Source: Lobosporangium transversale
Taxonomy: Eukaryota
Length of the DNA: 64,000 nt
NCBI RefSeq assembly: GCF_002105155.1
Contig: NW_019028980.1
Coordinates: forward strand, 1,240,001-1,304,000
Direction of reading: 5' to 3'
The notes under the pieces: generated by a model
Told to the model about the DNA's origin: nothing
Database searches by the model: none
Seen by the model: only the letters and a program-made list of their open reading frames with translations
Shown: piece after piece, positions 2,206 to 50,078 of the stretch
How the letters are laid out: each line of letters begins with the position of its first letter
Numbering within the stretch: position 1 is the first letter of the stretch
Program-made: the position numbers and the translations under genes

Positions 2206-5200
2206 CTAGGGAGTCCGACACTGTTCTGGATCACTGACAGATCCATGTTGATCCAAAAACTTCCTGTTGGCTTCACTCAAGCCGATCACGCCTCGAATTC
2301 TTGCACCAACGGCATTAAGAGGCGAGTGTCTCGTGGTCCACTTCAAGCGGACACGACATTGGCTATTCCCACTCTTGACAATCCTCCACATCCGAATACC
2401 ACCATCAAAATGTCCGGTCACCAAGGAGCAGTGTTCTTCAGAAATAGCCCATGCAAGGGCCCTAGGATCGCTAGCGAATGGGATAACAGCCAAGCACTGA
2501 CCTGAATCTGGATCCCACAGCCGCACAGTCATGTCTTTACTGCTTGAGGCAATGTACTGCCCATCGCATGAATAGGATATGGTGTTTATACCCCCGGTGT
2601 GTTCTTTAAGCGTACGCAATACGGCTCCTGATTCAGTGTCCACTATACTAATTGACCCATTTCCACTTCCAACAACTGTCAGTTCGCTGGATGGTGAAAA
2701 TGTTATGTGCTCTTGAGAACCATCGAAGTTTGTTTCGTGCAGTAGCTCGCCCGTTTCTGCGCTCCGTACTTGCAGCTTATTTTTGTCCTGGATAAATGCT
2801 ATCTTCCGACTGTCAGGTGAATATGCCATAAAGGAGGTGCCCTCAAAGTCATACAGAATCCCCCAGGTGTGCATTTTCCAGACTATGATTCTTCCATCGC
2901 TATAGTAAGAAGCAACCTGGGCACCATCAGGCGAGAATAACACACGTTCGGGGTCTTTATCGTGCCCCGGCAGAGTAGTGGGTTTTTTTGTTATCAAGTC
3001 CCACACACTCACATTGCCATTTTCATGGCCACAGGCAATATGGAGGCCAATTGGTGAAATATCAAAGACCAGGATAGTATCAAAGACCAGGATAGCCGGG
3101 CCTCGATAGATCGGACGCAAAGTGTCAGTAATTTGGCCTGATTCAGTGTTCCATAAGTAAATACAATGGCCAAGGTAAGGGTCAGACGAGGCTAACAATT
3201 GACCACCAGGGTGGTACTTGACATCGTATGTTTGCCTTCGTAGAACATAGATACATTGCCCTGATTGACTATCCCACACACGCGCTTCATCACCAAGGCC
3301 GCATGAGGAGATGCGTTTTCCATCTGGCGACAATCTTAACTCTTTGGTGGGGCCCCTGTGGCCATACGAATCGTGGCTAGTTTGCCTCGCTTGTGTGTCC
3401 CACAGATGTATCATCCCATCATTGCCGAATGACGCAACCTGATGGGAGTTTGGCGAATACGCTACATCAATTATATCGCAAGAGTGACCATGGAATATGT
3501 TGACCAATTGTCCTGACCTAGCATCCCAAAGTCGCAATGTACGGTCGAGAGAACTAGTGACTATCTGTTTTCCTTTTGGTGAATATTGCAGATCTTGGAT
3601 CACGGCGGTATGGCCTGCAAAAGTATGGATGACTTTTCTTGTTTGCATATCCCACTGATATGCTATCGTATTAGAGAACGAAGCGGCATGCTTTCCGTCA
3701 GGGGAATATTGAACACCGTCGGGATCGAAAATATGGCTCCCATCTTTCAAGCTCCCCTTTCGCTGACCAGACCCAGCATCCCATACATTCAAGGGGCCGA
3801 TGCTAAAACAAGTTATGATCTCCTGACTGTTAGGTGAATATACGATCTGGTTGATTTTGTAACCATCGCCCTGGGCCGTCGACACCAGCCCCCCTGATGC
3901 CGCATCCCACAGCCGCATCGTCCATTTTTCATCAATTGAGTTTCCAGCAGCAGCAAGCTGCTTCCCATCAGGTGAATAGGCCATGCTTGCCACTTTGCCA
4001 ACGTAATCCTTTAATGAATGCTGGAGTGCGCCAGAGTCGGTGCTCCATATATGCACTGACCCATCCTTGCTACCTGAGGCGAGATAGTTGCCATTTGGCG
4101 AGTATACCACATGATAAACATCAACTGCAGGACCATTCAATGTACGGACCACTGCCCCTGATGTTGCATCAAATACAGAAACTGTATTGTTATCCCCAAT
4201 GGCAATATGGCGACTGTCTGGAGAGTAGGTGAAGTTGTATGTGTGCACGTCCCTCAAAGTCATACGCTTCGCCCACGTGAACGTATCATAGATGCTGACA
4301 TGCATCTTTTTGGAATCACGATTGTACGTAGCTGCAGCAAAAGCCTTGCCATTAGGCGAATATATTCCCTTATATATTTCTCCCTCTTCTTTAAGGGATG
4401 GCCATCCTCCAAATTGTACACCTGCCATCTTTGCTCCCTCCAAGCCTGCTCCTCGAAGATAACAGCCGCGAAGATTGACATTCCTCAAATCTGCCCCTTG
4501 TAGTTGAGCACTATCGAATATACCATGACTAATGTCAGCTCCGGGGATCTGGATGCCTTGCAAGTCTGCTTCGCTGAATGACTCTCTTGCTCGTACCAGT
4601 ATCGTCATTGCATTCGCTGCTGCTATCCGCCATCTCTTGTCGCTCTTCGATAGCTCAACATACTCATACAGCTGCTGCTTGAACTTTGGTTCAATCTCAA
4701 CACGCTCTTTCAGGAACTCAAGGATCGATGGCTCATCCACAAAGCTCCTCCACACTAAAGGTGAGGTCTCATCTGCCTTGGCTGGATCTAGCTCACCTCC
4801 ATCCGCTTTACTCCCTTCCACTTCAAAGCTGAATACAGAGCTGACACTTTGTCGGCGACATTTCAGTGCTGTTGCTGCTACTGTATCACTTGCAACTGCA
4901 TTTGCCTTTTTCTGTGGCTCGAACATCGCTCGTACCACACAGTACTCCAGAATAGACCGATGCACAAACCGATACTGATTGCCTGTACGGCTCAGAGGTG
5001 ATGCTTCTCGAAGGAGGTGTTTCTTGCTTCCTCGGCTAAAGTACTCTCTCTTCCATGCTTCTTTGCGCTTACATGGATACTCTACCACTGGGTTGCCATT
5101 TTGATGCTTGTAGATTGCCACGGCCAGTTCTGTCAAGTACTTAATCCCATTTCGTGAAAACCCCTCATCGCACAGTATTTGGAACATCTCCTTATCTGAG

Positions 5201-8200
5201 CTATCGCTTGGCGGTGCCTCGATTAGTCGTTTCTCTCCTCGTTTGAGCCACGACTCAATGAACTGGTCATACAGTGTGATGCGCTTGAACTTTGTTGCAG
5301 AGATGTCTTGATGTGGGTTTATCATTTGAGGCAGCACTTCTAGTGCCATCGATAGTATGAATGGATTCTTCACAAGCTCTTGTAGACTAGGGACCATCTT
5401 GAGTGCAAACTGATAGTCCTCTACACTCCACAATATGCCTTCGCTTGGGACATTCTGTTTGATGTACTCATCAATCTGATCCTCAGAGAATGGTATAATC
5501 ACAGCCTCTTGGAACAAACCAGTATCTGCTTGGTGGTTGCAGCCCATAGGCTGGAACCGATCTCGATAGTCTATCCCAAGGTACTCGCTGCGACAACTAA
5601 TCACCATCTGACACTTCCATTCGCCAGACTGGTTGAGGCGGTTGGTGAAATAAAGGTTGCCGGGCAGCGTAATCTCATCATATCCATCACAGATCAAGAT
5701 GAATGCCCGATTCTTCTTCAACTCTTTGATCTGTTTCTTGGTGAAACCATGTATTTGCAGCTGTTTTGTGACCATATCTTTGGATGGGTCATTGATAGCT
5801 GGCAGGTAGATAAATAATGGAATCCGATGGTCCTTTGAATACTCTTTCCACAGCTTGTGCTCCAAAGTGAGGTTGAATGTCGATTTGCCTGCTCCTGAAT
5901 CACCTTGGACGAGTAGCACTTTCTGGTCACTGTTTAGGAACTCCCTCACCTTGTCCATTATCAAGAACGAATCGTCGTCACTTGCTTGGGGACTTGCCTT
6001 GGCATACTGCTGAATGTAGAAGGGTCTAACTTCCCTGTCCTCCATCCGCTGTTGCTTGAGCATACGTAAACTCTTCTCGACATCAGGCTTTTTCTGCGCA
6101 CGATCGAGTAATGACGGGGATGCAGGTGGAGGCGGGTTGACAATGAAGTGGTACTGTGGCTCTGGCTCCTGGATACAATCCTTGAAGAGTTGCTGTTTTT
6201 TGACATCTCCATCCTTAGCAAGGCTATCCAGGAGTAGCTTTGCAGCTATAAAGAGACAAATGCAGAGTATTATATACTATCGATATCAGTATCCCTACTT
6301 CCCGTAACTGAGTCAATGATGACGAATTAAAGATGAGATACCATGCCCACCTTGTAGGCCATCACTTGGCAAAGAGTCCAGTCTCCTCAGTATACCAATA
6401 ATACATCGCTTGATCTCCACATGATCACCCCAATCCTTGTCATTCCTGTATATCACTTCAAGAAAAGTGATCGCGTCTTGACGAGTTTCCATGTCCCACT
6501 GTGTATTGGCTGCAATCTGTCCTAACCGCTGACATAGCCCCCATTGGAATGCTGGCTCTCGTCGACAGGGCACCTCACGCACAAAAGCCTTGAACTTGGT
6601 GAGCTCGCCCAACTGAAGGAATGTATCAACTCCACGGAGCGCTGGATACCATGCACTCCTATGATTATATTTAAATCCTGCTTCCAAGCACTGTTTGAAG
6701 GCCTCTCCACTCTTAGCTAATGAGGCTACACCGTTGTACACACGCAAGCTCATGCCGGCAATTTCCGCCACAGTTGGAAGCCCTTCCTGAATATTGATCA
6801 GCTCATCCATGAAGGCATTTATATTTAGGTCTTTGACTGCACTCACTATTCCAAACACTCCTCGAGCCACTACTGATGTGCGTCGAAGCGTGGCTTGCAT
6901 TAGTGTTTCATCATTTGGAATATATAACAGTGCTTGGAAAGCATAGGCTGCATGGAATGCTAGATGTGGCTCTGACCTCCTTCGTAGTTCCCCCAAGTAG
7001 ACTGATAATGGCTCGTGAAGTTGCTCTCGCTTCAGGCCCTTGACTTGATTGTTAAGCATGGCATCCAGTACATGTGAGACTGACACACATAGCCGATATA
7101 TGTGGTTGCTAGACTGATCATGTGTGCTCTGCAAGCGGGAACCGAGGATATTGAGGATATTGACTAGGTCATCAGAGTCAAGGTATCCGGAAGAGGCATG
7201 CTGGATCAGCTGAGCTAATCCTCCCAGCAAATTAGTCTCTAGCATGGTGCTCCCATTGATTCTAGAGACTAAGAACTCAAGTACTGCCTTATACTGATCT
7301 TCGTTGAGGACTGGAGCCAGCATCACCACTTCAGCGACAGTAGCCTTGGTCCTGATATCGTCATGAATGAATATTGTAATAACGGCTGAGGCCAGGCTGT
7401 GAAGTCGATCTTGCTCATCTTGATTCTTCGCTGTGATCAAAGACCACTCTTGCTCCTGAACTGTAATTTCATTTTGCGGTTGGTTTGCAGTACCAAGCAG
7501 GCTGAGGCAGTAGACGAGATGGTGGATATCGACCAGAGAAGCATCTGGAGGGGGCAAACTGTACTTGGGCACTCGAGCTACATCACAAGCAAATATGTCT
7601 ACAGGGATAACTGAATTACTGTGCGGTGTTTTGGCTGTTACTGCTCTATTCACCCTCAGCTGGCTGATGCTGGTACTACTGGATCCTTGGCTGACGCTAT
7701 TATTGCTGCCTCTACCGTTGCTAACACTGCTAATGCTACTGGTGATACTATTGCTGTTGCTAATGCTGTTGCTAATACTGCTGTTGTTACTTGTGCTACC
7801 GCTAATAATGCTTTTATTGCTGCTGTTGCCGTTGCTGTTGTTGTTGCTGTTGCTGTTGCTGTTGCTGCCGCTGTTGCTGTTGTTGTTGCCGTTGCCGTTG
7901 CTGTTGCCGTTGCTGTTGCTACTTCTATTGCTGTTGTTGTTGTTGTTGCTAGCAGAGCTATCTGGCTGTAATGACTCTTGGCGGGTTGGAATATATCCCC
8001 ACTTCTCTGCTTTTTTGTCGTTCTTCTTAGCTTTGCATGTGTGGCCCAGACTTTGGAATAAGCAAGCGACTTTGTAGTGGGCTAAACCAATGCTTTGGCA
8101 GAGCTTCTGGTCTTCAGCGGAGCTTGAGGAGACAAGCCTCTTTCTCTCCGACCGCTGGATTCGAGACAGTGCAGCATGTGCATTAAGACACAACTTCTTG

Positions 8201-8310
8201 AGGGCGGCACTGCCATTACTTTCTATTCCAGAGTCTTCCATACTACTATTGAATTCCCTTAGAGCCTCAGATGGTGAGAGAACGCCTCGTGACGAAAAGC
8301 AGCTGAACAT
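2206..8310 (-). CDS. NLR-A: N-terminal helical domain + Asn/Ser linker + ARM-like domain + NACHT + pentapeptide repeats + WD40 array, 1999 aa; exons 8310-6351 and 6245-2206
   Basis: A phase-1 GT-AG intron at 6350-6246 joins the 665-aa and 1285-aa ORFs in frame (1960+4040=6000 nt). Walker A GDSGAGKS, Walker B LICDGYDE, NPF and YRFVHRSILEY motifs, ADL/AQL pentapeptides, many YSPDG...LWD repeats. Confidence 0.9.
7690..7950 (-). repeat. Coding low-complexity repeat (AGCAAC/AACAGC/GGCAAC units) encoding the Asn/Ser/Gly-rich linker of NLR-A
   Basis: Runs of gttgct/gttgcc on the + strand; translates to SNNNNNSNRSSNSNGNSNGNGNNNSNSGSNSNS... Confidence 0.9.
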
Positions 8311-9619: not shown

Positions 9620-10790
9620 GGTGGAGGAGCTTGTACCAGGTAACTACGTATCCATCTATAAGGTGACATGAGTTCATTCTAAAACCCCATATCAAAGATT
9701 TATCGCGTCAATGTGTATGGCGCGTTATCCCTTCGTCCGTCACAAAATCTAGAACGAATTTGTTCTAGATTTTTATGGGCACTAAATGCATGTCACACCA
9801 TATGATAAGTGTCAGTAAAGGAGGTTGGAATCGAGCTGGCCCCAGGAAGCCGGTGCTGGCCCTGGAGACTTGGGATTCGAGATATTTATTCTTCATTTAT
9901 TACTTTATCTTGTTTTTTTTTTGTGGGGGGGGGGTGAGCTAGGCGGCTGGTGTGATATGGAGGGATAAAGTTCTTTGATTTCATGAGCATTTATGAATAG
10001 TAGGGTCCAGTGAGTGAAGTGCGTGAAATGGAGGAGTATGGAATGAAGGAATTAAAGAAACCGATGAATCATGTAATGCGTAATGCTCAACGTGAACCTC
10101 ATGAACTCCCATTCAGTGTGAAATTGGAACGCGAATCGAGATCCCTTAGAGAATGGGGGGAGGGTCTCCTAAGCTAGTTTTTGAGGAAAACCTCTTTATT
10201 TGCAAATCGAGGAAAATCTGGAACAAATTTGTTCTGGAAACAGACGAAGGGATACAACGCAGGGCTCGGAAGCCGGAGTCAAGGTAAATAGGGACTGCCG
10301 TGCTCCATCCTGTTTTGTATCAACGCTTCGGGCGCATCGCTCCTCAAGGCAGAACCTATGTGTGCATTGAAGCCACTAGACATTGGTAAGGAGAAGCAAC
10401 TACTGGAAACCCTGGTAAATATTAAACATTAGGTTGGCATGTTATATATTATATACTAGGCAAAACCATCGCCCAGGGCATTGGCGAGGAGCCGGCAAGT
10501 AAGATCGCTGTAAAGAAGCCCGAGTCGAGTGGATGACGAATCATATCTTTGTGAAATGGTTGAATGAACTCGATGGCCAGCTCACGGAGCCAAGCCTACT
10601 TCTCCTAGGTTCAGCTCCACAACACAACAACATCGATATGCGTGACCCTTCCACCAATCAATCTTGGAAGCACCGCCGCATCCAACGACTCCCGGTGAAT
10701 TCAACACCTGTTACGCAGCCTCTTGGCGCAGGTATTATTAGTGTGTTCAAGCAAGCATTCTTGAGATGCTTACCCATGAGTCGCATCTCA
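9620..10790 (+). mobile_element. Degenerate pogo/Tigger-type (DDE_1, Tc1-mariner superfamily) transposase remnant, interrupted by a MITE
   Basis: Fragments SILFCINASG, LKPLDIG, WMTNHIFVKWLNELD, LLLLGSAPQH and LPVNSTPVTQPLGAGIISVFK match the pogo DDE core. The two expected Asp residues (LLLLD, QPLD) read as Gly. Frameshifts present; boundaries approximate. Confidence 0.75.
9728..10252. mobile_element. 525-bp MITE with ~40-45-bp imperfect terminal inverted repeats and TA target-site duplication (Stowaway/mariner-like)
   Basis: Left end TA|TCCCTTCGTCCGTCACAAAATCTAGAACGAATTTGTTCTAGATTTT; right end AAAATCTGGAACAAATTTGTTCTGGAAACAGACGAAGGGA|TA. No ORF inside. Confidence 0.8.
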
Positions 10791-11425
10791 TCCAAACGTT
10801 TGATATTGTTGGTTTTAGTTTTAGTCACGTGTAGAGGGTTCGCCACCAACTATTTAACGAGCAACAGCTCAGGAAAATCTGGCTCCTTGTTCCTTATTTT
10901 TACACAAGAGCCATTTGAGTACTGACTGTTCTCGTCCAGTCTTTGAGTAGTGTGTGTGTTCTTTTATTGTGTTAGAATTATTTATCTATCTGCAGCTGGA
11001 AGTGACCGGCTTCATAATCCACCAAAACGACCTAAATCTCCTACCACATCTGCCCCTAAATTTTGCAACAATATGGCGAAGCTTATTTTTAGTGAATGCG
11101 CGTAGCCGATAATCCCATATACATCCATATACATGGAATTCCGTTAAAGCGACAACACTAAGGAATTGCTTGCTAAACGCCGGCCCTTCCTGAAGAGATG
11201 CGGCAGCGTCTCGAAGCCGTGTCGACTACCAATGTAGAGCGGGACCATGAGCTCCGGTACAACACCGAACAATAGTCATGTTCCAACATCAGATGATGCC
11301 ATGGGACCCCCTAACAGATGGGCTGGGATTATGTGTAAGTCTTTTTTTTTTTTTTTTTTGCTCTGACAGCCACAAGATTTCATGACTTCTGTAGCGTTAA
11401 TGATACCAAAAATTTGTGCAACATG

Positions 11426-11458
<33 letters not shown>

Positions 11459-11825
11459 GAGATTGGCCCTGTGAAATTTTGTCTTCGCCACTTCGTCCTC
11501 GCCCACTTCGTCTTCGCCACCTTTGTTCTCCATCTTTGAAGTGTCTTTTTTTCTTCTCCTTCCACTCTCCTTTTCACACACCACCCATTTTCAACATCCT
11601 CCTCCTCTTTTCTTTCCTTCTATATCCTTCAACTTTTCTGTCGTATCTTTTAGACCATCTATACCCTATAATCTCTATAATCGTATCCGACTGCTCCACT
11701 GTAAGGTTTCCTTCACCAATATTTCTAACTGATTATCTTGCTAACGGAACATTCATCATTTAACAGCAACCATTGTTTTATCAGTTACAGTAAAAGGCTA
11801 TAGACTGTCAAAAAAAAAAAAAAAA

Positions 11826-14800
11826 ATGGGATCGCAGCAAAGCAAACCCCATTCAAGAAGAGACTTCAAGTGCGCAATCAAATGGGGTCGTACACGAAAA
11901 ACATTTCAGCTTCAGACAGCTCCCGCGACTTTGCAACTATCCCGAAAGAAATATTTGGATATGATATAGCTAGAGGGACCAAATATAGCTTACCCCCTCC
12001 AAACGCTTCTCTAGATGATATTCACCACCTCGTTTACTGCCTCAGAGTGCTCTCGACTGCACCAAAAGATCTCACAGACGAGGAGAAAGATTGGGTTTCG
12101 GTCATATCGGATGATAAAGATGAAAAAAAGCGACTTCGCAAAATGGCTCCGGATGTGGCTAAAATGTTTATTCGTGATAACAACAAGACCAAAGCTACTG
12201 TTGCTGAGGTCGTAATGCTGGCTCCGGTCCTCGACGATTATCATTATACGAAAGTGATCAGCACTTTGATCGACCTAATCAGTAAAGGTATTATGCTAGA
12301 GACTACTTTGCTAGAAGGGTTAGCTCAGCTGATACAGTATGCTTCTCCAGGATGCCTCAACTCTGATGATCTGGTCAATATCCTCATTCCCCTCAGTTCT
12401 CGTCTACAAGGCATTCACGAGCAGTCTAGCAGCCACATTTATCAACTGTGTGTAGCAGCCTCACATGTACTTGATGCCATGGTCAACAATCAAGTCGAGG
12501 GTCTGGAACGAAAACAGCATGAGGCACTAACAGCTTCCTTCAAGAGGCTGCGAGACAGTTCAGACCCTTATTTGGTATATCATGTAGCATATGCTTCTCA
12601 AGCTCTACTGTATATTCCAAATGATGAAACACTAATGCAAGCTATGCTTCGGCGTACATCAGCGGTTGTACAAGGTGTATTTGGATTAGTAAGTGCGGTC
12701 AAAGATATAAATCTAAGTGACTTCCTGCATGTGTACAACAATGTAGTCTCACTAGCCAAGAGCGGGGAGGCATTCAAGCAGTGTATGGAAGAAGGCTTTA
12801 GCTTCAGTCGCAAGGCCGCATGGTATCCAGCACTCCGTAGAGTTGATGCATTCCTCCAATTAGGTGAGCTCACCAATTTCAGGACTCTCGTATGTGAAGC
12901 ACCCTGTCGACGAGAACCAGCATTCCAATGGGGATTATGTCAACGCTTAGGTCAGATTGCAGCCGATACACGATGGAACATGAAAGTTCGTCAATATGCG
13001 GTCACTTTTCTTGGAGAGATGTACAAAAATGACAAGGATTGGGGCGACTATGTGGGGATCAAGCGATGTATCATTGGTATACTGAAGAGACTGACCTCAC
13101 TGTCAAAGGATGACATACAAAGTGAGTAGACAATAAGTCTCATCCTTAGTTCACCATCATTGGTTCACTTGTGAGGATCAGAGGAACTGACATTGATATA
13201 TTTATCGTGCTCTACATAAATTTCTTTGTAGCGGCAAGACTGCTTCTGTGTAACCTTGCTATGGATGGAGATACTAAAAAACAACAGCTCTACAAGGATT
13301 GTTTCCAGGAGCCAGAGCCACACCCCTTCATTTACATACCGTCGCCACTTGAATCTCCGTCATTGGTTGATCGTGTGCAGGACAGACCTGATGTCGGGGG
13401 GAGTTTGCGTATACTCAAGCAACAGCGGAAGAAGGCAAGAGGCGACAAGTTCTTCTACATTGACCAATATGCCAAGGCGAGTCCTCAAGCTAGTGATGAC
13501 AAATCGTTTCTATTGATGGACAAAGTGAACGAGTTCTTGAAGAGCGAGCAGAAAGTGCTGCTTATCCAAGGTGATTCAGGAGCAGGCAAATCGACATTCA
13601 ACCTTGCTTTGGAGCGTACTCTATGGGAATCATTTCGAGAGGGAGATGACGGGATCCCATTACTCATTAACCTGCCAGCCATCGACAACCCAGCCAACGA
13701 TATGGTCGCAAAACAGCTGCAAATACATGGTTTCACCAAGAAACAGATCAAAGAGTTGAAGAAGAATCGGGCATTCATCTTGATCTGTGATGGATATGAT
13801 GAGATTACGCTGCCCGGCAACCTTTATTTCACCAACCGCCTCAACCAGTCTGGCGAATGGAAGTGTCAGATGGTGATTAGTTGTCGCAGCGAGTACCTTG
13901 GGATAGACTATCGAGATCGGTTCCAGCCTATGGGCCGCAACCACCAAGCAGATACTGGTTTGTTCCAAGAGGCTGTGATTATACCATTCTCTGAGGATCA
14001 GATTGATGAGTACATCAAACAGTATGTCGTAAGCAAAGACATATTGTGGAGTGTAGAGGACTATCAGCGTGTGCTCAAGACGGTTCCTAGTCTACAAGCG
14101 CTTGTGAAGAACCCATTCATACTTTCAATGTCCTTGGAAGTATTGCCACGTATGGTTGATCCACGTCAAGACATTTCTAAAGCTCAGATCAAGCGCATCA
14201 CACTATATGACCAGTTCATTGAGTTGTGGTTTGAGCGTGGCAAGAAGCGACTAGGCGAGAGATCAGCGGCAAACAGTGCAGACAGGGATATGTTTCAAGC
14301 ATTATGTGATGAAGGGTTCGCACAGAATGGAGCCAGATACTTGAAAGAGCTGGCTGTTGCAATCTATAAGCATCAAGGAGGCAATCCAGTCGTAGAATAT
14401 CGCCCGTTCAAACACGGGGGCACATGGAAAGACCAATACTTTAGCAGAGAGAGTAGGAACTACCTCCTGCGAGGGGAATCACCTCTAAAACGCACAGGCA
14501 ACCAGTATCGGTTTGTCCATCGGTCTATCCTAGAGTACTCTATGGCGTTAGCGACCTTTGAGCAAAAGGAAGTGACGAATGCGACTGTAAATGATCAGGG
14601 AACAGCAGCGGAATACGGTGAGACTTCACCTCTGGTATGGAGAAGCTTTGTGGACGAGCCATCTATCCTTGAATTCCTGAAAGAGCGTGTCGAAATAGAA
14701 TCAGAGTTCAAAGAACAGCTGTATAAGTATGTTGAACTGTCGAAGAGCGACAAAAGATGGCGGATAGCGGCAGCAAATGCAATGACAATCTTAGTCCGAG

Positions 14801-17088
14801 CAGGGAAGTCGTTCACTGGGGCGAACTTGCAGGGCATCCGGATCCCAGGAGCCGACCTTAGCCATGGGATATTCGATTGTGCTCAGCTACAAGGAGCGGA
14901 TCTAAGTGGCGCCAACCTTCGTAGCTGCTGGCTTCGCGGAGCAGACCTGAGCGGGGCAAAGGTGGGAGGCGTACAGTTCGGAGAATGGGCACTTCTTCGT
15001 GAAAGGGGAGCGATAATCCAAGGGTCATATTCACCTGATGGTAGAACATTTGCTGCAGCTGTATACAGCTTTTATACCAAGGAAAGCTATGTCAGCATCT
15101 ACGATACATCGACATGGGAGAAACGTATGACTTTGGGTGCCGATGTGAGGGACAACTGCTCCTCTACCGACTTTATCTACTCTCCAGACAGGCTACACAT
15201 TGCCATATGGTACAGACATGACAGGAGTATGATTTTTGTGTTCGATATAGCAACAGGCAGAGAAATCCATAAGCTGGAGGGTCATGCAGCCGTTGTCTGT
15301 TGTGCAGCATACTCACCAGATGGCAGCCATCTCGCATCAGGTGGCGGAGATGGATCAGCGTACGTGTGGGATACTAGGTCTGGGGTGGTTCAGTACAGAT
15401 TAAAGGGACACAATGGTGAGGTGACAAGCATGGCATATTCGCCTAATGGGAAATGCGTTGTGACGGGAGGCGAAGACAAGGCGGTACGGCTATGGGATGC
15501 AGCATCAGGGAAGCCAATAGTGGTGCTCCAGGGCTGTGAATCTCGAGTTGAGCAAATTTTATGTTCGCCTAACAGTCAGAAAATCATTGTTCGTTCTTAC
15601 GATACACTGAATGTGTGGGATGCTAAATCTGGCCAGAGGATTTGGGCCTTGAAACATAACGGCCATGTCAGCGGTGTTCAATATTCGCCCGATGGGAAAT
15701 ATGTTGCTTCGTTCTCCGAGAATACAGCATTCCAGTGGAATTTGCAAACAGGAGAAGTCACTCATGCCCTTTCAGGCCATTACGATCGGATCAGAGACTT
15801 GAAATACTCACCGAATGGAGAGCAGCTAGCCACTTGTGCTTCGGACAGTACAGTGCGACTTTGGGATGCTCGATCGGGGCAGTTGATCAGCACATTTTAT
15901 GGCCACTCCCGTACATATAATGACATAAATGGTGTGGCATATTCGCCAAACAACTCTCAGGTTGCATCATTCAGTGAAGGTGAAACTATACGCCTGTGGG
16001 ACACGCAATCACGACAATCAAGCCATGATTCATATGGTCACACAAAATCAGTTCACCGAGTAAAGTTTTCGCCGGGTGGGCAGCAAATAGCCTCATGCAG
16101 CCCCCGGGATACAGTACGAGTGTGGAATACTCAAACGGGACAATGTATTCATATTTTACAATCCGATACGTTCGATGTAAAGTATTCGCCAGACGGCCAA
16201 CTGCTTGCCTTTCACAACTACAATGATGAGCGCGTTCACCTTTGGGATACTGTATCGGGCCAAGCTGTTCACACCATGGACCCGCAGAAACAGAGCCATA
16301 GCGGCTACGCCTTTGATATTTCACCAATTGACCCCCAAATTGCCTGTGGTGATTACAGCAGAAACGTGGGTGTGTGGGACATGCAAACAGGACAATGCAT
16401 ACGTACCCTGAAGGGGGAGGGCAGTACTGTGAAGCGTGTGTTATTCTCCCCCAATGGTCATCAGATTGCTTCTTATGACTCAAGTGGGAGGATCATAGTC
16501 TGGGCAGCGCGCTCAGGGAAGCTCCTGTATGTCCTGCGTGGGTTGAAAGCCGATGAACTATTTGAGGGTTTTTTAGTTTATTCACCTAATAGTCAGAGGA
16601 TAGCATTTATCCATGACTACAAAACACTCCAATTATGGAATGCAGAAACAGGCAAGCTGTGCTACAAAAGAGTCCTCGATGATTTCCAACAACACATCGC
16701 ATTTTCACCGTGCAGTCGACAGCTGCTTGTTGGAAGTAAAAATGGGTCAATTGTCATGGTAGGCACTGAGTCAGGAGCTTTGTTGCATAAGTTTACAGGG
16801 CATACCAACACTATAACCGCCATATCTTATCCTTGTGACGGTCAGTACATCGCCTCAAGCAGCTATGACGGTACTGTACGGCTGTGGGATTCAGAGTCAA
16901 GCAAGTGCTTGGCTGTCATCCCATTTGCAGATGGATATGTTCAAAGCCTTGCATGGAGTAATGCCGAAGGAGGGCACTTACTGGCGACAGGGCATGATGG
17001 GGGTTGTATTCGAATGTGGAAGATTGCTAAGGATGAGCATGACCGATGCCATCCTCGCCAGTCGCTGCACAGTTCGTCCAGCTTCTAA
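11826..17088 (+). CDS. NLR-B: ARM-like + NACHT + pentapeptide + WD40, lacking the N-terminal helical domain and conserved C-tail; intron 13122-13231. Orthologous ATG 11826 is out of frame by 1 nt; in-frame ATG 11882 gives 1698 aa
   Basis: Same phase-1 intron as the paralogs; Walker A GDSGAGKS and Walker B LICDGYDE intact. The 5' end ATGGGATCGCAGCAAAGCAAACCC aligns with the NLR-E start ATGGGATGGATGCAAAGCATGCCC. The A5 run at 11897-11901 would need to be A6 to keep that frame. Confidence 0.8.
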
Positions 17089-30957: not shown

Positions 30958-31434
30958 TTTTTTTTTTTATCATTATATTTGCTTTCTCATTCTTTGTATT
31001 GTACATAGGTAGCCTTTTTTTTTTTTTTTTTTTTTTTTTGTATGCTCCATGTAAACAGCTTTTCAATTGTCTCCCATCTTTGTAACACTAGACTTTTTAT
31101 TTTTATTTCTTTATTTATTATATATTTACCTTACCCATCTCAACTAAATATATAACAAAGAGATATTCTTTCGTATACCATTGGTGTCTACATTTACATT
31201 AGTCAATGCTGACTGTGAGAACGTGAGAATTGGTGAATCAAATAGCGGCGTGAGTAAAGTTTAAAAAAAACTTTTTTTTGATAATGAAGCAGTATCGCTT
31301 ACGACTTTTACTGCAGGATCTTGAAAGAAAGCTACCCCGGAACACGATCTACTTGAAAGACTGTATGACGTGAAAGGATTCGTGTCTGGGGCACTTTGTT
31401 TAGATGGTGTAGAAAATATTTCTAGAGGCGCAAA

Positions 31435-34400: not shown

Positions 34401-37400
34401 CTCTTTCAGGAACTCAAGGATCGATGGCTCATCCACAAAGCTTCTCCACACCAAAGGTGATGTCTCATCTGCTTTTGTTGAGTCAAGTTCATCCCCATAT
34501 GCTTTAATCCCTTCCACTTCAAAGCTGAATACAGAGCTGACACTCTGTCGGCGACATTTCAGTGCTGTTGCTGCTACTGTATCACCTGCAGCCGTATTCA
34601 TCTCTTTCCGTGGTTCGAACATCGCTCGTACCACACAGTACTCCAGAATAGACCGATGCACAAACCGATACTGATTGCCTGTACGGCTCAGAGGTGATGC
34701 TTCTCGAAGGAGGTGTTTCTTGCTTCCTCGGCTAAAGTACTCTCTCTTCCATGCTTCTTTGCGCTTGCATGGGTACTCCACCACTGGGTTGCCATCTTGA
34801 TGCTCGTAGATTGCTACTGCCAGTTCTGTCAAGTACCTAATCCCATTCTTTGCGAACCCTTCCTCACACAGTATCTGGAGCATCTCTCTATCTGTGCTAT
34901 CTGTTGTCGATATCTCACTTAGTCGCTTCTTGCCTCGTTCGATCCACGACTCAATGAACTGATCATACAGTGTGATGCGCTTGACCTGTGTTGTGGAGAT
35001 GCCTTGATGTGGGTCTATCATTCGTGGCAGCACTTGTAGTGCCATCGATAGTATGAATGGGTTCTTTACAAGCTCTTGTAGACTAGGGACCATCTTGAGT
35101 GCACACTGATAGTCCTCCACACTCCACAATATGCCTATACTTGCGACATACTGTTTGATGTACTCATCGATCTGCCTCCCAGAGAATGGTACAATCACAG
35201 CTTCTTGGAACAATCCAGCATCTGCTTGGTGGTTGCGGTCCATAGGCTGGAAGCGACTTCGATAGTCTACTCCAAGATACTCACTGCGACAGCTGATCAC
35301 CATCTGACACATCCATTCGCCAGCATGGTTGAGGTTGTTGGTAACATACAGGTTCTTGGTCTGCATGGTCTCATCATATCCATCACACACCAAGATCAAT
35401 GACCGACTCCTCTTCAGTTCCTTGATCTGCTCACTCGTGAAGTCATACATCCGCAATTGCTTTGCAACCATATCTTTTGTTGGGTCATCGATGGCTGGCA
35501 GGTTAATGAACAGTGGGATGCGGCCATGGTTCTTTTGATACGCTTCCCACAGAGTGGACTCTAGATTGCGGTTGAATGTCGACTTGCCTGCTCCTGAATC
35601 ACCTTGGATGAGCAGCACTTTCTGCTCGCTCTTCAAGAACTCGTTCACTTTGTCCATCAATAGGAACGATTCGTCATCACTAGCTTGAGGATTCGCTTTG
35701 GCATATTGGTCAATGTAGAAGAACCTGTCGCCTCTTGTCTCCATCCGCTGTTGCTTGAGTAAACGTATGCTCTTCTCCACATCAGGCTTATTCTGTGCAC
35801 GATCGAGCAGTGATGGAGATGCAGGTGAAGGCAAGGTGGCAGTGAAAAGATGCTGTGTTGTTGGCTCATTGATATCTCTATCCGCAGCAAGGTCATGGAG
35901 GAGTGTCTCTGCAGCTACAGAGGAATACATGTGGAACATAGTGTACTATGCTTATTAGTATCGCTGCTTTTTGCAACTGAACCAACGACCTAATATTGAG
36001 GTAGCATGACTACTCACCTTGCAGGCCATCCTTCGTCGACAAGGCCAGCCTCTTGAGGATAAATATAATCCATTACTTGATCTCAGGATGGTGACCCCAA
36101 TCATTGTCATTCTTGTATATCTCTCCAAGGAGAGCGACTGCATCTTCTCGAATTTCAAGGGTCGACTCTGTGTTGGCTGCAAGCTGTCCTAAGCGCTGAC
36201 ATAGACCCCATTGGAACTCTAGCCTTTGTCGACAAGGTGACTTATACACAAGGGCCTTGAACTTGACGATCTCGCCTGTCTGGAGGAATGCATCAATTCC
36301 ACGGAGTGCAGGATACCATGCACTCTTGTGACTAAAGCTGAGTCCTTCTTCCATACACTGCTTGAATGTAACCCCACTCTCATACAGTGAAACTGCGTTG
36401 TTGTACATACTCAAACTCTTGTCAATAGCTCTTGTCACAGATGGAAGCTGCTTTTGAATGTTGGTTAGCTCGTCCATAAAGACATTTAGATCCAGGTCTT
36501 TGATTGCACTCACTACTCCAAACACTCCTCGAGCCACTGCTGATGTACGCCGAAGCATAGCTTGCATTAGCGTCTCATCATTTGGGATATATAGCAAAGC
36601 TTGAGAAGCATAGGCTGCATGGTATGCCAGGTGAGGATCAGAGCTCTCTTGTAGTTCTTTCAAGTAGGCTGCTAGTGGTTCATGGAGTTGTTCTCGCTTC
36701 AGACCCTTGACTTGGTTGTCGACCATGGCATCCAGCACATGTGAGACTGTCACACACAGTTGATAGATGTGACTGCCACACTGTGAATGCGTGCTTTGTA
36801 AGCGAGAACTGAGGATATTGAGGATGTTGACCAGATCATCAGAATCGAGGTATCCAGGAGAAGCATGCTGCATCAGCTGAGCCAGTCCTTCGAGCAAATG
36901 AGTATCCAGCATGATATTCTGACTGATTCTGTTGATCAAGGCCATGAGCACTGCCCTGTATTGATCATAGTCAAGGACTGGAGCCAGCATCACAACCTCA
37001 GCAACAGCAGGCCCATTCTTGACACTCTCCTGGATGAAGATTGCAATGACATCTGAAGCCAGGTTGTAAAGTCGGAGTTGCTCATCTTGATCATTCGATA
37101 TGGCTAGGAACCACTGTTGCTCCTGGTCTGTGAGAGCAGTCAGTGATCGATGTGCGGTGTGAAGCAGACTAAGGCAGTAGACAAGCTGATGGGTACTATC
37201 CAGATGAGCACCTAGGTCAGGCAGACTGTACTTGTGCACCACTGGAGGGACATCGTGGTCAAATATTTCTTTTGAGGAAGTTGGAGGCTTATGGGTTGTA
37301 GAGGCCTCTGGTGCTTTGATAACATTGTCCGCTCCATTGGTATGGGCATTGGTACTTTGTTGAGCACTTTTGTTACTGTTGCTATTGACGCTGTTGTCAC

Positions 37401-38212
37401 TTTGAGTACCATTGCTGTTGCTGCTTTCATTATTGTTACAATCGTGATCATCTTTGCTTATGTTGGCAGGTTGGTGAAGCGTATGAGAACTGTCTGAAGC
37501 TAGATTGGCTTGTCGTACATGACCCCATTCGGCTGCGTACTTGTGGCCTCTTTTCGAATGATCTGGATGACCAAGATTGTCGAATAGCTCACCGATATCA
37601 TTCAGAGCAGCACCGATTGTTTTACACAATGTTTTATCTGTTGAGGCTGAGAGAAGAGACTTTCGTTCAGACCGGTGTATTCGAGAAAGAGCACTCTCAG
37701 CATCCAAACAGATCTCCAAAGCGAGCACAGGGTCGTTTGTCTTGTGTGCATGTTCCAAGTAGATGGTAGCAAGGTCTAAGGCTTTTTGAGGTAGGAGCTG
37801 ACTCCGTTTGGGCATGCTTTGCATCCATCTCATTTCTTCTTCTTTTCTTTCCCAGCCAGAAGTCGGTTAAAGCAATAGTGATTTGTTAGATTGATGACGT
37901 TTCATTAGCAAAGCAACCAACCAACTAGTTAATCGTAGTGAAGGAAGCCTTACAATGAAGGACTTGAGAACATGAATGGTGTATAAGATAGTCTACAATA
38001 CGACGGAGAAGTCGAGTAATATAAAAGGGAGAGGGGAGAATGGGAAAGAACAGTGAAAGGAGAAAAAAAAAAAAAGAGAGCAGTTCGACACCTCAACGAT
38101 GGGGAACAAGGTGGCGAAGGCGGTTAAAATAAATAAAGAAATAAATATACACAATGGTATAATATTTCTTTGAAGCGACATCTTTACGAACACCATGGCT
38201 TTTTTTGCATAC
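31435..38212. repeat. Left arm of a ~6.8-kb inverted duplication (NLR-D plus flanks)
   Basis: Its reverse complement aligns with 43266-50078 across promoter, CDS, intron and 3' flank (e.g. TTCTCTGAACTCCAGCATG, CATTTCTACAATAAG). Ends approximate. Confidence 0.85.
31785..37833 (-). pseudogene. NLR-D: near-copy of NLR-E with an in-frame TAA at 36075-36073; exons 37833-36018 and 35914-31785; NACHT-WD40 exon fully open
   Basis: GAG ATC AAG TAA TGG versus GAG ATC AAG CAA TGG in NLR-E. The 103-nt intron 36017-35915 is homologous to that of NLR-E. No other frame disruption seen before the terminal stop. Confidence 0.8.
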
Positions 38213-43265: not shown

Positions 43266-46200
43266 TATGCAAAGTAAAAAAAAAAAAAAAAAATCTTGAT
43301 GGTTTACACAAAGAAAATATTGCGCCCCCATCTTTTTTTTTTTTGACTGCCTTCGCCGCCTTGTTCCCCATCATTGAAGAGTCGAACCACTCCCATTTTT
43401 TTTTCTTTTCCTTCCACTATTCTTTCAGCACATCATCCATTCTTCCATCTCCCTTTTATATTGCTCGACTTCTCTGTCGTATTATAGACTATCTTATACA
43501 CATTCACGTTCTCAAGTTCTCCACTGTAAGGCTTCCTCCGCCGTCATTAACTTGTTGGTCGCTTTGCTGATGAAACATCACCAATCTAACGAACCGCTAT
43601 TGCCTTTATCAATTACAGGCTGTGAAAGAAAAAAACAAAGAAAAATGGGATGGATGCAAAGCATGCCCAAACGAGGACAACTCCCGCCTCAAAAAGCCTT
43701 GGACCTTGCTACCATCTACTTGGAACATGCACACAAGACAAACGACCCTGTACTCACTTTAGAGATCTGCTTGGATGCTGAGAGTGTTCTTTCTCGAATA
43801 CACCGGTCTGATCGAAAGTCTCTTCTCTCAGCCTCAACAGATAAAACATTGTGTAAGGCAATCAGTGCTGCTCTGAATGATATCGGTGAGCTATTCGACA
43901 ATCTTGGTCATCCAGATCATTCGAAAAGAGGCCACAAGTACGCAGCCGAATGGGGTCATGTACGACAGGTCAATCCAACTTCAGATAGTTCAGGCACACT
44001 TCATCAAGCCACCAACACAAGCAAAGATGGCTACAGTGATAGCAATAATGAATATGGTGACAACAACAACAACAGCAGCAATAGTAACAGCAATAATAAC
44101 CAGTGTAACAACAGGGACAATAACAGCGACAACAAAAGTTCTCAACAGGATACCGGCACCTATACCAATGGAGTGGACGATACTATCAAGGCACCAGAGG
44201 CCTCTACAACCCACAATCCTCCAACTTCCTCAAAAGACATATTTGACCATGATATACCTCCAGTGGTGCACAAGTACAGTCTGCCTGATCTAGGTGCTCA
44301 TCTGGATGGTACCCATCAACTCGTCTACTGCCTTAGTCTGCTTCATACTGCACATCAATCACTGACTGCTCTCACAGTCCAGGAGCAACAGTGGTTCTTA
44401 GTCACATCGAATGATCAAGATGAGCAACTCCGACTTTACAACCTGGCTTCAGATGTCATTGCAATCTTCATCCAGGAGAGTGTCAAGAATGGGCCTGCTG
44501 TTGCTGAGGTTGTGATGCTGGCTCCAGTCCTTGACTATGATCAATACAGGGCAGTGCTCATGGCCTTGATCAACAGAATCAGTCAGAATATCATGCTGGA
44601 TACTCATTTGCTCGAAGGACTGGCTCAGCTGATGCAGCATACTTCTCCTGGATACCTCGATTCTGATGATCTGGTCAACATCCTCAATATCCTCAGTTCT
44701 CGCTTACAAAGCACGCATTCACAGTGTGGCAGTCACATCTATCAACTGTGTGTGACAGTCTCACATGTGCTGGATGCCATGGTCGACAACCAAGTCAAGG
44801 GTCTGAAGCGAGAACAACTCCATGAACCACTAGCAGCCTACTTGAAAGAACTACAAGAGAGCTCTGATCCTCACCTGGTATACCATGCAGCCTATGCTTC
44901 TCAAGCTTTGCTATATATCCCAAATGATGAGACACCAATGCAAGCTATGCTTCGGCGTACATCAGCAGTGGCTCGAGGAGTGTTTGGAGTAGTGAGTGCA
45001 ATCAAAGACCTGGATCTAAATGCCTTTATGGACGAGCTAACCAACATTCAAAAGCAGCTTCCATCTGTGACAAGAGCTATTGACAAGAGTTTGAGTATGT
45101 ACAACAACGCAGTTTCACTGTATGAGAGTGGGGTTACATTCAAACAGTCTATAGAAGAGGGGTTCAGCTTTAGTCACAAGAGTGCATGGTACCCTGCACT
45201 CCGTGGAGTTGATGTATTTCTTCATTCAGGCGAGATCACCAAGGTCAAGACCCTTGTGTATAAGTCACCTTGTCGACAAAGGCTAGAGTTCCAATGGGGT
45301 CTATGTCAGCGCTTAGGACAGCTTGCAGCCAACACAGAGTCAACCCTTGAAATTCGAGAAGATGCAGTCGCTCTCCTTGGAGAGATATACAAGAATGACA
45401 ATGATTGGGGTCACCATCCTGAGATCAAGCAATGGATTATATTTATCCTCAAGAGACTGGCCTTGTCGACGAAGGATGGCCTGCAAGGTGAGTAGTCATG
45501 CTACCTCAATATTAGGTCGTTGGTTCGGTAACAAGAAGCAGCGATACTAATAAGCATAGTACATTATGTTCCACATGTATTCCTCTGTAGCTGCAGAGAC
45601 ACTCCTCCATGACCTTGCTGCGGATAGAGATATCAATGAGTCAACAACACAGTATCTTTTCACTGCCACCTTGCCTTCACCTGCATCTCCATCACTGCTC
45701 GATCGTGCACAGAATAAGCCTGATGTGGAGAAGAGCATACGTTTACTCAAGCAACAGCGGATGGAGACAAGAGGCGACAGGTTCTTCTACGTTGACCAAT
45801 ATGCCAAAGCGAATCCTCAAGCTAGTGATGACGAATCATTCCTATTGATGGACAAAGTGAACGAGTTCTTGAAGAGCAAGCAGAAAGTGCTGCTTATCCA
45901 AGGTGATTCAGGAGCAGGCAAGTCGACATTTAACTGTAATCTAGAGTCCACTCTGTGGGAAGCGTATCAAAAGAACCATGGCCGCATCCCACTGTTCATT
46001 AACCTGCCAGCCATCGATGACCCAACAAAGGATATGGTTGCAAAGCAACTGCGGATGTATGGCTTCACGAGTGAGCAGATCAAGGAACTGAAGAGGAGTC
46101 GGTCATTGATCTTGGTGTGTGATGGATATGATGAGACCATGCAGACCAAGAACCTGTATGTTACCAACAACCTCAACCATGCTGGTGAATGGATGTGTCA

Positions 46201-49200
46201 GATGGTGATCAGCTGTCGCAGTGAGTATCTTGGAGTAGACTATCGAAGTCGCTTCCAGCCTATGGACCGCAACCATCAAGCAGATGCTGGATTGTTCCAA
46301 GAAGCTGCGATTGTGCCATTCTCTGAGGATCAGATCGATGAGTACATCAAACAGTATGTCGCAAGCATAGACATATTGTGGAGTGTGGAGGACTATCAGT
46401 GTGCACTCAAGATGGTCCCTAGTCTACAAGAGCTTGTAAAGAACCCATTCATACTATCGATGGCACTACAAGTGCTGCCACGAATGATAGACCCACATCA
46501 AGGCATCTCCACAACACAGGTCAAGCGCATCACACTGTATGATCAGTTCATTGAGTCGTGGATCGAACGAGGCAAGAAGCGACTAAGCGAGATATCGACA
46601 ACAGATAGCACAGATAGAGAGATGCTCCAGATACTGTGTGAGGAAGGGTTCGCAAAGAATGGGATTAGGTACCTGACAGAACTGGCAGTAGCAATCTACG
46701 AGCATCAAGATGGCAACCCAGTGGTGGAGTATCCATGCAAGCGCAAAGAAGCATGGAAAAGAGAGTACTTTAGCCGAGGAAGCAAGAAGTACCTCCTTCG
46801 AGAAGCATCACCTCTGAGCCGTACAGGCGATCAGTATCGGTTTGTGCATCGGTCTATTCTGGAGTACTGTGTGGTACGAGCGATGTTCGAACCACGGAAA
46901 GAGATGAATACGGCTGCAGGTGATACAGTAGCAGCAACAGCACTGAAATGTCGCCGACAGAGTGTCAGCTCTGTATTCAGCTTTGAAGTGGAAGGGAGTA
47001 AAGCGGATGGAGGTGAGCTAGATTCAGCCATAGCAGATGAGACATCGCCTTTGGTGTGGAGAAGCTTTGTGAATGAGCCATCGATCCTTGAGTTCCTGAA
47101 AGAGCGTGTTGAGATTGAACCAAAGTTCAAGCAGCAGTTGTATGAGTATGTTGAGCTATCGAAGAGCGACAAGAGATGGCGGATAGCAGCAGCAAATGCA
47201 ATGACGATACTGGTCCGAGCAAGAGAGTCGTTCAGCGAAGCAGACTTACGAGGCATCCAGATCCCAGGAGCTGATCTTAGCCATGGTATATTTGATAGTG
47301 CTCAACTACAAGGAGCAGACTTGAGGAAAGTCAATCTTCGCGGCTGTTGGCTTCAGAAGGCAGACCTGAGTGGAGCAGAGATGTCAGGTGTACAGTTTGG
47401 AGAGTGGGCATTCCTTCAAGAAGAGGGGATTGCAATGAAAGGATCATACTCGCCTGATGGCAAGACACTAGCTGCGGTTGTGTATAATCGTGACACCAAG
47501 GAGAGCCATGTCAGCATATATGATACTCTGACATGGGAGAAGCGCATGACTTCAGAGATCATTATTGGCGGCTTCATTAATTTTACATACTCTCCAGACA
47601 GTGGACGCATTGCCATATGGTACAGAAGTGACAGTAGTGTGGTTTATGTGTTTGATACAGTATCAGGGGTAGAAGTCCATAAGTTGGAAGGCCATGCAGG
47701 CACCGTCGAATGTGTAGTATACTCACCTGATGGAAATCATCTCGTCTCAGGAAGCAAGGATGGACCAGTATATGTGTGGGATACCAAGTCAGGCGTGATC
47801 CAATACACATTAGAGGGCCACACTGGTATGGTGGGGAATGTGGTGTATTCACCGGATGGGAAGCAGATTGCAACTGGAGGCGAAGACAAGATAGTGCGGC
47901 TATGGGATGCGGTGTCAGGAGAGCTCATTCTGATACTCCAAGGGTGGGAATATCAACTCTTGCAAATTGTATATTCACCTAACAGTCAGGAAATCATCAC
48001 TTGCTGTGGTGGCAGTAGGTTACTAGATGTATGGGATGCTAGGTCTGGTCAGAAGAAGTGGACTTGGGAGCATAAAGAAGGTTCCGTTGAGGGTATTCAG
48101 TATTCACCTGATGGGAAATATGCCGCTACGTTTTCCCAGTACGCAGTATATCAGTGGAATATGCAAACAAGAGAAGTCATCCATACTTTTGAAGACCATG
48201 ACGGTCAGATCAAATGCTTGAAATATTCACCAAATGGAGAACAGATAGCTATTGGTTATTGGGACTGTATAGTACGGATTTGGGATACTCGATCAGGACA
48301 ACTAAACGCAGTTTATTATCACCCTGACATGATATATGATGTGGCATATTCACCAAACAGCCATCAGCTTGCATCATTCAGCGAAGATGGAACGATACGA
48401 CTGTGGGACACACAATCAGGCCAATCTAGGCATGTGTCCTATGGTCATACATCTGATATCGGCACACCAAGGCTTTCACCGGATGGGAAGTACATGGCCG
48501 CATTCAGTCGCACTGACGATATAGTGCGTGTATGGGACAGTCGAACAGGACAATGTGTTTACGTCTTACAATACAAGCCAACTGACGTCAAGTATTCATC
48601 TGATGGTCAGCTGCTTGCATTTTATGACTACAGTGATCATCGTGTTCACCTTCTGGATACTGGAACAGGCCAGCCTGCCCTTATCTTGGAATCACAAACC
48701 AAAAGCGATGAGATCAAAACCTTTGATATTTCACCTGTTGGCCACCAAATTGCTTTTGGCTATAAAAGTGGACAAGTAGATGTATGGGACACACAAGCTG
48801 AAAAGCTCGTGTGTACTTTGCAGTATGGGGGCGATTTGTGGGATATATTATTCTCACCTTGTGGTCGCCAGATTACTTGTCGCGGTCAAGGTGATATAGT
48901 CAAAGTCTGGGTAGCGCATTCAGGGGACTATCTTTATGAGTTTAGCGGCAGTGATTCAATGGTTTACTCGCCTGACGGCCAGAAGATAGCACTGATTCAG
49001 AACGACAATATCCTCCAGCTACTGAATGCAGAAACAGGCGAGCTCTGTTCCGAAACGAATTTCGATTGTAGACCACTACCCATTGCATTTTCACCATCTA
49101 GTCAGCTGGTGGCTGTTGGGGCTTATAGGGGATCAATTAGCGTGGTGGATACAGAATCAGGGACGGTGTTACATATACTTGAAGGACATACCGAGTATAT

Positions 49201-50078
49201 AATGGACCTTTCTTATTCTAGCGATGGCCAGTACCTCGCCTCACATGACATAAACGATGTAAAGCTATGGGATGCAGAGTCAGGCCAGTGCTTGGCTGTC
49301 CCGAATATATACAAATGTATTACAAATCTTGCATGGAATGTTACTGGAGAAGGTCACTTTCTAGTAACAGCATATAGTAATGGCTCTACCCGGATGTGGC
49401 AGATTGTTAAGGATGAGTATGGCCAATGCCATGTCCGACTGAAGTGGAGCTCGGAGCAACAGCCTTTTAACGCCCATAAAGTAAACATTCAAGATGTATC
49501 TGGCTTGAGTGAAGCAAACAGAAAGCTTTTGGAACAACATGACGCTGTTGGCGACCCAGTGCAGCGCCCGACTTCCAGCGAAGCAAGCTATGAGGCCAAT
49601 ACAGCGATATCTACGCTACCTAGGATCAGTGAAGTGGAAAGTAATGTGTTGGATACGTCATCAAAGAGAGACATGACCAGAGCAAGGCCATTGCTCGCTA
49701 AAAGTGAAGGAAGCAAGGGATATCAATTCATTTGTAGCAAATGTAGTGAATGCGACGAGTGTGGAGATGCACATTTCATTCTAAGTGGTTCATACGACAA
49801 ATCTGATAGTAACTGATCAGTATTGTGAGGAAGGGAGCATGCATGCCAACCTAATAAAGTAAAGGCACTCTGTGCTCCCACACCTCCTTAGCTAGTTAGT
49901 TATATATTTCATTTCTACAATAAGGTGGTCAAATGGCCTGCTTGCCAAGTTACTATCTCCTCAATATCAAGCCTTCAATGACACAGACATTTTGTAAGCT
50001 TCTCTGAACTCCAGCATGGACTCTGCAAATAAAAGGTGTTTTAAAGTGAGAGGAACGACGCTTTTACATAGCTCGACC
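43266..50078. repeat. Right arm of the inverted duplication (NLR-E plus flanks)
   Basis: Reverse-complement match to 31435-38212. Ends approximate. Confidence 0.85.
43645..49816 (+). CDS. NLR-E: intact full-length paralog, 2022 aa; exons 43645-45487 and 45591-49816
   Basis: ATG 43645 (MGWMQS...). Phase-1 intron 45488-45590 (GTGAGT...TACTAAT...TAG). GDSGAGKS, LVCDGYDE, pentapeptide repeats, WD40 array, GLSEANRKLL tail and a Cys-rich extension. Confidence 0.92.

Follow-up and report, generated by a model that had tools for sequence, protein, structure and literature searches.

What are five giant receptor-like genes doing in one region of an early-diverging fungus, and where did they come from? 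The genes lie in a 64,000-nt stretch of the Lobosporangium transversale genome (contig NW_019028980.1, positions 1,240,001 to 1,304,000; hereafter the window), whose DNA is fungal-like and eukaryotic. Between window positions 2206 and 49816 there are five long paralogs, numbered g1 to g5 (Table 1), which an earlier note on this DNA had taken for NOD-like receptors (NLRs) of an innate-immune or non-self locus. Our analysis assigns them to an NLR family already described from the Mortierellaceae, for which a bacterial origin is well supported by our trees. By analogy with other NLRs, the window genes may have an immune or non-self role.

Judged by sequence, the five copies are members of the published Mortierellaceae 'NLR_Helical' NACHT-pentapeptide-WD family. 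The protein OAQ23208 (P0070), entered as NLR_HELICAL in the supplement of PMC9815663, matches exon 1 of g1 with an E-value of 3.3e-110 and is a direct homolog of the window genes. The NLR_Helical cluster (KFH66451) was described as NACHT-PENTAPEPTIDE-WD proteins of Mortierellomycetes with a long alpha-solenoid N-terminus and homologs mainly in Mycoavidus (Wojciechowski et al. 2022, PMC9815663). The window genes have the same domain order, with NACHT followed by pentapeptide repeats and WD40 (g3 without a pentapeptide match), and the same N-terminal alpha-solenoid of more than 500 aa (PF23948, E 6e-76), and full-length homologs are found in Mycoavidus. Their architecture, which had been considered unusual, is thus that of a family in print. 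The name Lobosporangium was not found in the supplements searched (11 files, file 2 in part), and the assignment of the first 100 aa as TPR-like, the Gly-rich segment, the intron, selection and local clusters are all absent from the passages of PMC9815663 consulted.

Among the best 120 of 128 longer homologs all named ones are from Mortierellaceae, the top matches (about 60% along their full length) belonging to Lobosporangium transversale, and full-length genes are annotated in many genera of this fungal family. The window genes fall within a Lobosporangium clade (support 100) and constitute a Lobosporangium-specific expansion. An ARM-domain profile has matches in 1127 clusters (50% identity). 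There are also a few matching Glomeromycota proteins, which may in some cases reflect symbiont contamination. Pezizomycotina homologs, reported in PMC9815663, were not among the named matches listed, and our trees were built without them. Some members from distant Mortierellaceae genera (P0285, P0289, P0290, P0292) are unusually alike, with 88.8% over 1336 aligned positions between Dissophora globulifera and Actinomortierella ambigua and 78-81% for other pairs, whereas most pairs of the family are far more diverged; the cause may be transfer between fungi, a slowly evolving subfamily or contigs with wrong labels.

The domain content agrees with the NLR-like architecture that had been proposed, and is that of signal transduction ATPases with numerous domains (STAND). 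Pfam finds ARM_5 in exon 1 (PF23948, E 7e-58 to 6e-76 in the window copies) and, in this order, NACHT (E 2e-4 to 5e-9), pentapeptide repeats (E 5e-9 to 2e-15) and WD40 in exon 2. The order given in the earlier note therefore stands, except that the N-terminal helical domain is present in only four of the five copies and that a Pfam pentapeptide match is absent from g3. The nucleotide-binding motifs are intact: all five copies have the Walker A sequence GDSGAGKST and the NACHT signature DGYDE, and the STAND NACHT motifs GxxGxGK[ST], D[GAS]hDE, which is the Walker B signature of NACHT (10.1101/2022.07.19.500537), and a winged-helix His motif (FVHRS) are all present. The structure model predicts the N/S linker to be disordered, and a sequence search of the PDB gave no match for the ARM and NACHT parts. 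The WD40 array of g5 likely forms two propellers.

All copies are interrupted at the identical site, in phase 1 (computed for g1, g2, g4 and g5, and by reading the sequence for g3), by a GT-AG intron of 88-110 nt that in every case contains a motif, CT(A/G)A(C/T), resembling a branch point. The earlier description of five paralogs, each split by it into two open reading frames (ORFs), is correct with the exception of g3, which consists of three. Splicing of the five genes is deduced from homology, as 51 of 120 homologs align gap-free across the joint and intron-less Mycoavidus ORFs also span it. Among 47 short database homologs, ten terminate 0-3 residues past the joint (the three identified are Lobosporangium and Entomortierella proteins), and two homologs carry an insert of 35-38 aa exactly there. 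Since short homologs end and inserts occur at this point, the intron is probably common to Mortierellaceae and was gained after transfer from bacteria. In g2 (13122-13129), g4 (36017-36010) and g5 (45488-45495) the intron has an in-frame stop after two codons, and its retention would yield a TPR-ARM or ARM-only protein.

An alignment-based scan of bacterial genomes returned 11 loci, all from Mycoavidus cysteinexigens, while a single-sequence pattern scan with the ARM of g1 gave 44 pattern matches, none of them confirmed. All five Mycoavidus genomes contain ARM_5 with 12-20 matches each, mostly in intron-less single ORFs of 1600-2000 aa, and the seven closest loci share 40-44% identity with g1 along some 1800 aa. 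Within the bacterial family of Mycoavidus, ARM_5 was found in 14 of 199 sampled genomes, all of 1.9-3.1 Mb, and in 0 of 14 controls. In a tree of ARM plus NACHT (64 rows, 815 columns), 38 of 39 Mortierellaceae rows form one branch with a support of 99 in the SH-like approximate likelihood-ratio test (SH-aLRT), embedded in a succession of bacterial paralog groups; only P0134 is placed elsewhere, among bacterial rows. A single clade for the 12 nearest bacterial rows, a group named after the tree was seen, was rejected by the approximately unbiased (AU) test (p 0.0009). A mixture-model tree of 40 rows, which omits 24 of the 64 as long, compositionally odd or redundant, unites Mortierellaceae with seven bacterial rows at 100/99 and with four more at 100/100. 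Rooting is at the midpoint, between the two deep groups.

A bacterial origin of the fungal genes is therefore well supported, and these trees add that the fungal genes stem from a single subgroup within a bacterial family of greater diversity. A single acquisition is favoured but not firm, because the ARM-only tree (130 rows) places two bacterial groups inside the fungal rows and the mixture-model tree unites the fungi alone at only 58/99 (58% bootstrap); both results count against it. Reverse transfer from the fungus to Mycoavidus, which the ARM-only tree suggests, was supported neither by the ARM plus NACHT trees nor by the AU test, while a back-transfer of the seven nearest bacterial rows retains some probability at a bootstrap of 58%. 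Our results agree with Ciach et al. (2024, PMC11291939), who reported that NACHT-PPR-WD40 NOD-like receptors moved from Mycoavidus cysteinexigens to Mortierellomycota. Architecture and direction of transfer are the same, the identity to Mycoavidus being 45-50% there and of a similar order here, but here the fungal genes are placed in one bacterial subgroup and the window genes in a Lobosporangium-specific expansion. Fungi were also proposed to have gained NACHT genes from intracellular symbionts (10.1101/2022.07.19.500537), and the window copies were likely acquired from Mycoavidus-type endosymbionts.

The homologs comprise several deviating forms. ARM_5 occurs in Mycoavidus without a NACHT match (849 aa, and doubled in 1310 aa) and also together with HEAT repeats or NB-ARC-like cores (P0135, P0123, P0143, P0132), so that the N-terminal module seems to have been shuffled onto different sensors. 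In one Mycoavidus ORF of 3225 aa (L007:3-9677) the ARM/NACHT region is repeated in part, and another TPR-like domain, the second, lies near aa 2334-2428. Two others (L003:6058-8811 and L004:3418-5376) adjoin NLR-like genes and have WD40 arrays related to those of the NLRs, behind a short N-terminus that resembles an F-box; this suggests that host-directed proteins make use of the same propellers. Three fungal-labelled proteins, P0134 (Linnemannia gamsii; in the same 90% cluster as a 2728-aa protein) and P0287 and P0295 (Cetraspora), group with or near bacterial rows and are possibly from endosymbiont contigs in fungal assemblies.

As the earlier note had recognised, two copies are intact and three are altered. 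After splicing g1 and g5 read without stops. As read from the assembly sequence alone, g4 is broken by a single TAA (36075-36073, codon 587, Gln in g5), and g3, likely a pseudogene, has a frameshift near 19515 and a WD40 array interrupted by a stop, with remnants beyond it. The g2 gene lacks both the C-terminal tail and the N-terminal helical (TPR-like) domain, and within ARM it is 21 aa short in the Gly-rich segment. An N-terminal exon hidden upstream of g2 was considered and rejected, since neither a hidden Markov model (HMM) search of six frames nearby nor tblastn revealed one. Unrelated genes are interspersed among the copies and the arrangement is not strictly tandem. Short sequences related to the DDE_1 transposase remnant were seen by eye near 9745-9770 and 10217-10240. 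Two small ORFs between the NLR copies, at 24844-25359 (-) and 38666-39256 (+), have signal-peptide-like starts and no Pfam match.

Table 1. Features of the NLR locus, in positions of the window.
Feature	Position	Strand	Description
g1	2206..8310	-	intact, 1999 aa; TPR-ARM_5-NACHT-pentapeptide-WD40; phase-1 intron 6350-6246
g2	11882..17088	+	open frame of 1698 aa; intron 13122-13231
g3	18652 (about)..23560	+	likely pseudogene; intron 20451-20538; stop at 23372
g4	31785..37833	-	full length with one premature TAA; intron 36017-35915
g5	43645..49816	+	intact, 2022 aa; intron 45488-45590
g5 N-terminal domain	43687..43956	+	aa 15-104; five predicted helices, two TPR-like hairpins
g5 ARM_5 (PF23948)	44245..45480	+	alpha-solenoid, 'NLR_Helical' region; Pfam and fold searches
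g5 Gly-rich segment	44947..45159	+	amphipathic, helical, within ARM_5; aa about 435-505; poorly predicted; candidate output element
g5 NACHT core	45902..46855	+	Walker A (aa 719) to Walker B DGYDE (aa 792-796), sensor-1-like Arg, winged-helix FVHRS (aa 1032)
g5 pentapeptide repeats	47228..47347	+	Pfam
g5 WD40 array	47393..49447	+	15 repeats by anchor motif
Inverted duplication, arm 1	31434..38139	-	6.7 kb, g4 with flanks
Inverted duplication, arm 2	43331-50079		g5; 91.3% identical to arm 1
Likely gene-conversion tract, g1 NACHT	5455..5768	-	227 + 86 identical nt with g2 13709-14022
DDE_1 transposase remnant	10503..10925	+	between g1 and g2, upstream of g2 where its N-terminal domain is missing; E 2.5e-9

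Duplication, sequence exchange and decay have all left traces in the window, and the 6.7-kb inverted duplication and the pattern of conversion and divergence among the copies are additions of this analysis. The g1 and g2 genes, 71% identical overall, share identical runs of 227 and 86 nt in NACHT (longest in 300 block shuffles 98); g1 and g4 share runs of 152 and 131 nt (longest in shuffles 135). These long runs are likely gene-conversion tracts. Between g4 and g5 the ratio of non-synonymous to synonymous substitutions (dN/dS) is 0.82 in WD40, 0.36 in ARM, 0.25 in the TPR-like domain, 0.19 in NACHT and 0.08 in the pentapeptide repeats (Fisher p 6e-6). Within WD40, amino-acid differences affect 50 of 147 predicted top-face loop positions, fixed beforehand, versus 58 of 480 others (p 7e-9). 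Together with two intact and three damaged copies, the inverted duplication, the conversion tracts and the faster WD40 change bear out the birth-and-death evolution proposed for the locus.

The earlier note chose the Podospora proteins HET-E and NWD2 for comparison, but the actual kin of the window genes are Mortierellaceae and Mycoavidus proteins. The Podospora HNWD/NWD proteins (HET-D, HET-E, HET-R, NWD2) also combine NACHT with WD40, concentrate variability in the repeat domain and exchange sequence between paralogs. However, the window genes add pentapeptide repeats, no HET, HeLo or amyloid N-terminus was found in them, and their long identical tracts are located in NACHT rather than in the repeats. 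HNWD repeats evolve in concert, with an internal WD40 identity of at least 85% (Dyrka et al. 2014, PMC4986451). In the window genes it is 28-37% (the median is 74% among 17 homologs from bacteria and 58% among 93 from fungi), and concerted evolution of the HNWD type is therefore absent here. With the bNACHT anti-phage proteins the window genes share the D[GAS]hDE signature, but PADLOC matches nothing in the N-terminal half; it gave a weak match to the P-loop region in the NACHT part (PDC-S60, E 8e-6) and, in one homolog from Mycoavidus, a match to the repeat region.

AlphaFold models the N-terminal domain of g5 with five helices at a predicted local distance difference test score (pLDDT) of 85.9. 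Pfam matches nothing in the first 100 aa of the window proteins (first 230-290 aa scanned, E up to 1), whereas an HMM of these 100 aa detects the domain in most Mycoavidus ORFs as well as in 100 of the 120 homologs. TPR_2 is recognised in 20 of 26 aligned members, the bacterial rows, while none of the four window rows reaches E 0.1. A profile of the domain matches OGT and designed TPRs (E 1e-9 to 1e-11), fold searches give TPR-like and designed helical repeats with middling scores, and the Atlas leads are TPR clusters under 0.9. Foldseek returned no match at E 0.001; the best VIA match, to a designed repeat, has a Z of 11.6. In a comparison with four-helix pore domains the best matches, by structure and by sequence, were again TPR-like or designed helical repeats, and an MLKL, HeLo, CC or death fold had no match among the Foldseek and VIA results listed. 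The models indicate that the domain consists of two TPR-like hairpins, an assignment that is new here. The ARM_5 part has a generic HEAT/ARM solenoid fold (best Z 11.8, not specific).

Known fungal effector domains, none of which the earlier note had recognised, were not found by Pfam or by structure comparison either. HET, HeLo/HELL, Goodbye, SesB, PNP_UDP and TIR gave no Pfam match in exon 1 (E up to 0.01; up to 1 in the first 230-290 aa), and Pfam scans turned up no amyloid N-terminus, no search being aimed at amyloid motifs. The region encoded by exon 1 is instead occupied by the TPR-like domain, the N/S linker and ARM_5. To call this half uncharacterised is correct insofar as the literature searched shows no function for it, although it has a Pfam entry (PF23948) and a published name.

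We favour, at a probability of about 0.55, the view that these are cytosolic switches of the STAND type, which sense proteins that are foreign or altered, the steps being modelled on other NLRs. The WD40 propellers would hold NACHT closed and bind ligand on their top faces, which would lead to ADP/ATP exchange and oligomerisation. The resulting ring would cluster the N-terminal TPR and ARM solenoids, which in turn would recruit a downstream partner; such recruitment is proposed because the searches revealed neither an enzyme nor an amyloid or known pore domain. The ligands would likely be proteins of intracellular bacteria or other microbes, and the window genes are likely fast-evolving sensors of foreign proteins.

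Several points weigh against this reading. The dN/dS of top-face codons is 1.52, which in this one pair is not significantly above 1 (p 0.28). Because g4 is broken, some of the WD40 signal could stem from relaxed constraint, and the divergence of the top faces is suggestive only. Loops are variable in any WD40 protein. An internal WD40 identity of at least 85% over 100 aa, as in HNWD, was found in none of 4 window proteins, in 5 of 17 homologs from bacteria and in 2 of 93 from other fungal sequences. A scan of 13 neighbouring ORFs recognised no effector gene. In the literature searched, which did not cover subscription papers, we found no functional study of any family member, and Ciach et al. 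(2024, PMC11291939) call the role of these receptors an open question.

The receptor could also kill directly, if the Gly-rich amphipathic segment within ARM_5 (g5 aa about 435-505) swung out on oligomerisation and disturbed a membrane without any partner. This segment, described here for the first time, contains 13% Gly versus 3.6% in the preceding ARM (248 homologs), is kept in fungi and bacteria, and is the only low-confidence stretch of the solenoid (about 70 aa, pLDDT under 50 at 443-509). Its profile weakly matches the pore-forming subunit XaxA (E 0.013), and other effector domains were not found. However, the remaining matches of the profile are generic helices, coiled coils and designed armadillo repeats outscore XaxA, Pfam gives ARM_5 only in 10 of 10 such segments, the best 19-residue hydropathy of 0.5-1.5 is below that of a typical membrane helix, and the low pLDDT may merely mean a flexible insert. 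While the segment is a candidate output element, we consider killing by this route distinctly unlikely. A function apart from defence has a somewhat better standing, unlikely as it is as well: the genes may descend from a scaffold or effector that Mycoavidus directs at its host, kept and expanded by the fungus to manage or tolerate the symbiont or as a decoy. TPR, ARM and WD40 are protein-binding modules, and in the bacterial family sampled ARM_5 occurs only in small genomes, most of which have several copies. Mycoavidus has genes for secretion of types II, III and IV (PMC5877345), but secretion of 1900-aa STAND proteins is a putative step. Moreover, intact NACHT motifs and the fast change at the sensor end fit a receptor, and the fungal family seems to be large whether or not a strain hosts bacteria.

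Three damaged copies out of five, the transposase remnant beside g2 and a top-face dN/dS not significantly above 1 would also be expected from a largely neutral expansion, in which genes were duplicated in a transposon-containing region and then decayed, the WD40 signal being relaxed constraint. We regard this as highly improbable, since ARM and NACHT have a dN/dS of 0.19-0.36 in all five pairs compared and full-length genes are annotated across so many Mortierellaceae genera. A bolder proposal would combine several of these elements: the Mortierellaceae built their NLR repertoire from an endosymbiont protein family and made an immune system of it, a TPR-capped ARM solenoid provides a new type of output in which the Gly-rich insert, released on oligomerisation, disturbs membranes, and the WD40 top faces diversify against proteins of the donor. 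As a whole this is very doubtful, and the STAND switch that recruits a partner remains our preferred reading.

Since the family and its bacterial origin are already in print, the locus itself is no discovery but a useful test case, which provides two intact alleles along with a pair of recent duplicates and a naturally occurring deletion of the N-terminus. New are the TPR assignment, the shared intron, the pattern of conversion and divergence, the inverted duplication and the Gly-rich segment as a candidate. If the immune reading is true, the NLR immunity of early-diverging fungi would have been acquired independently of that in Dikarya, via a symbiont, and with an effector mechanism unlike HET, HeLo or TIR.

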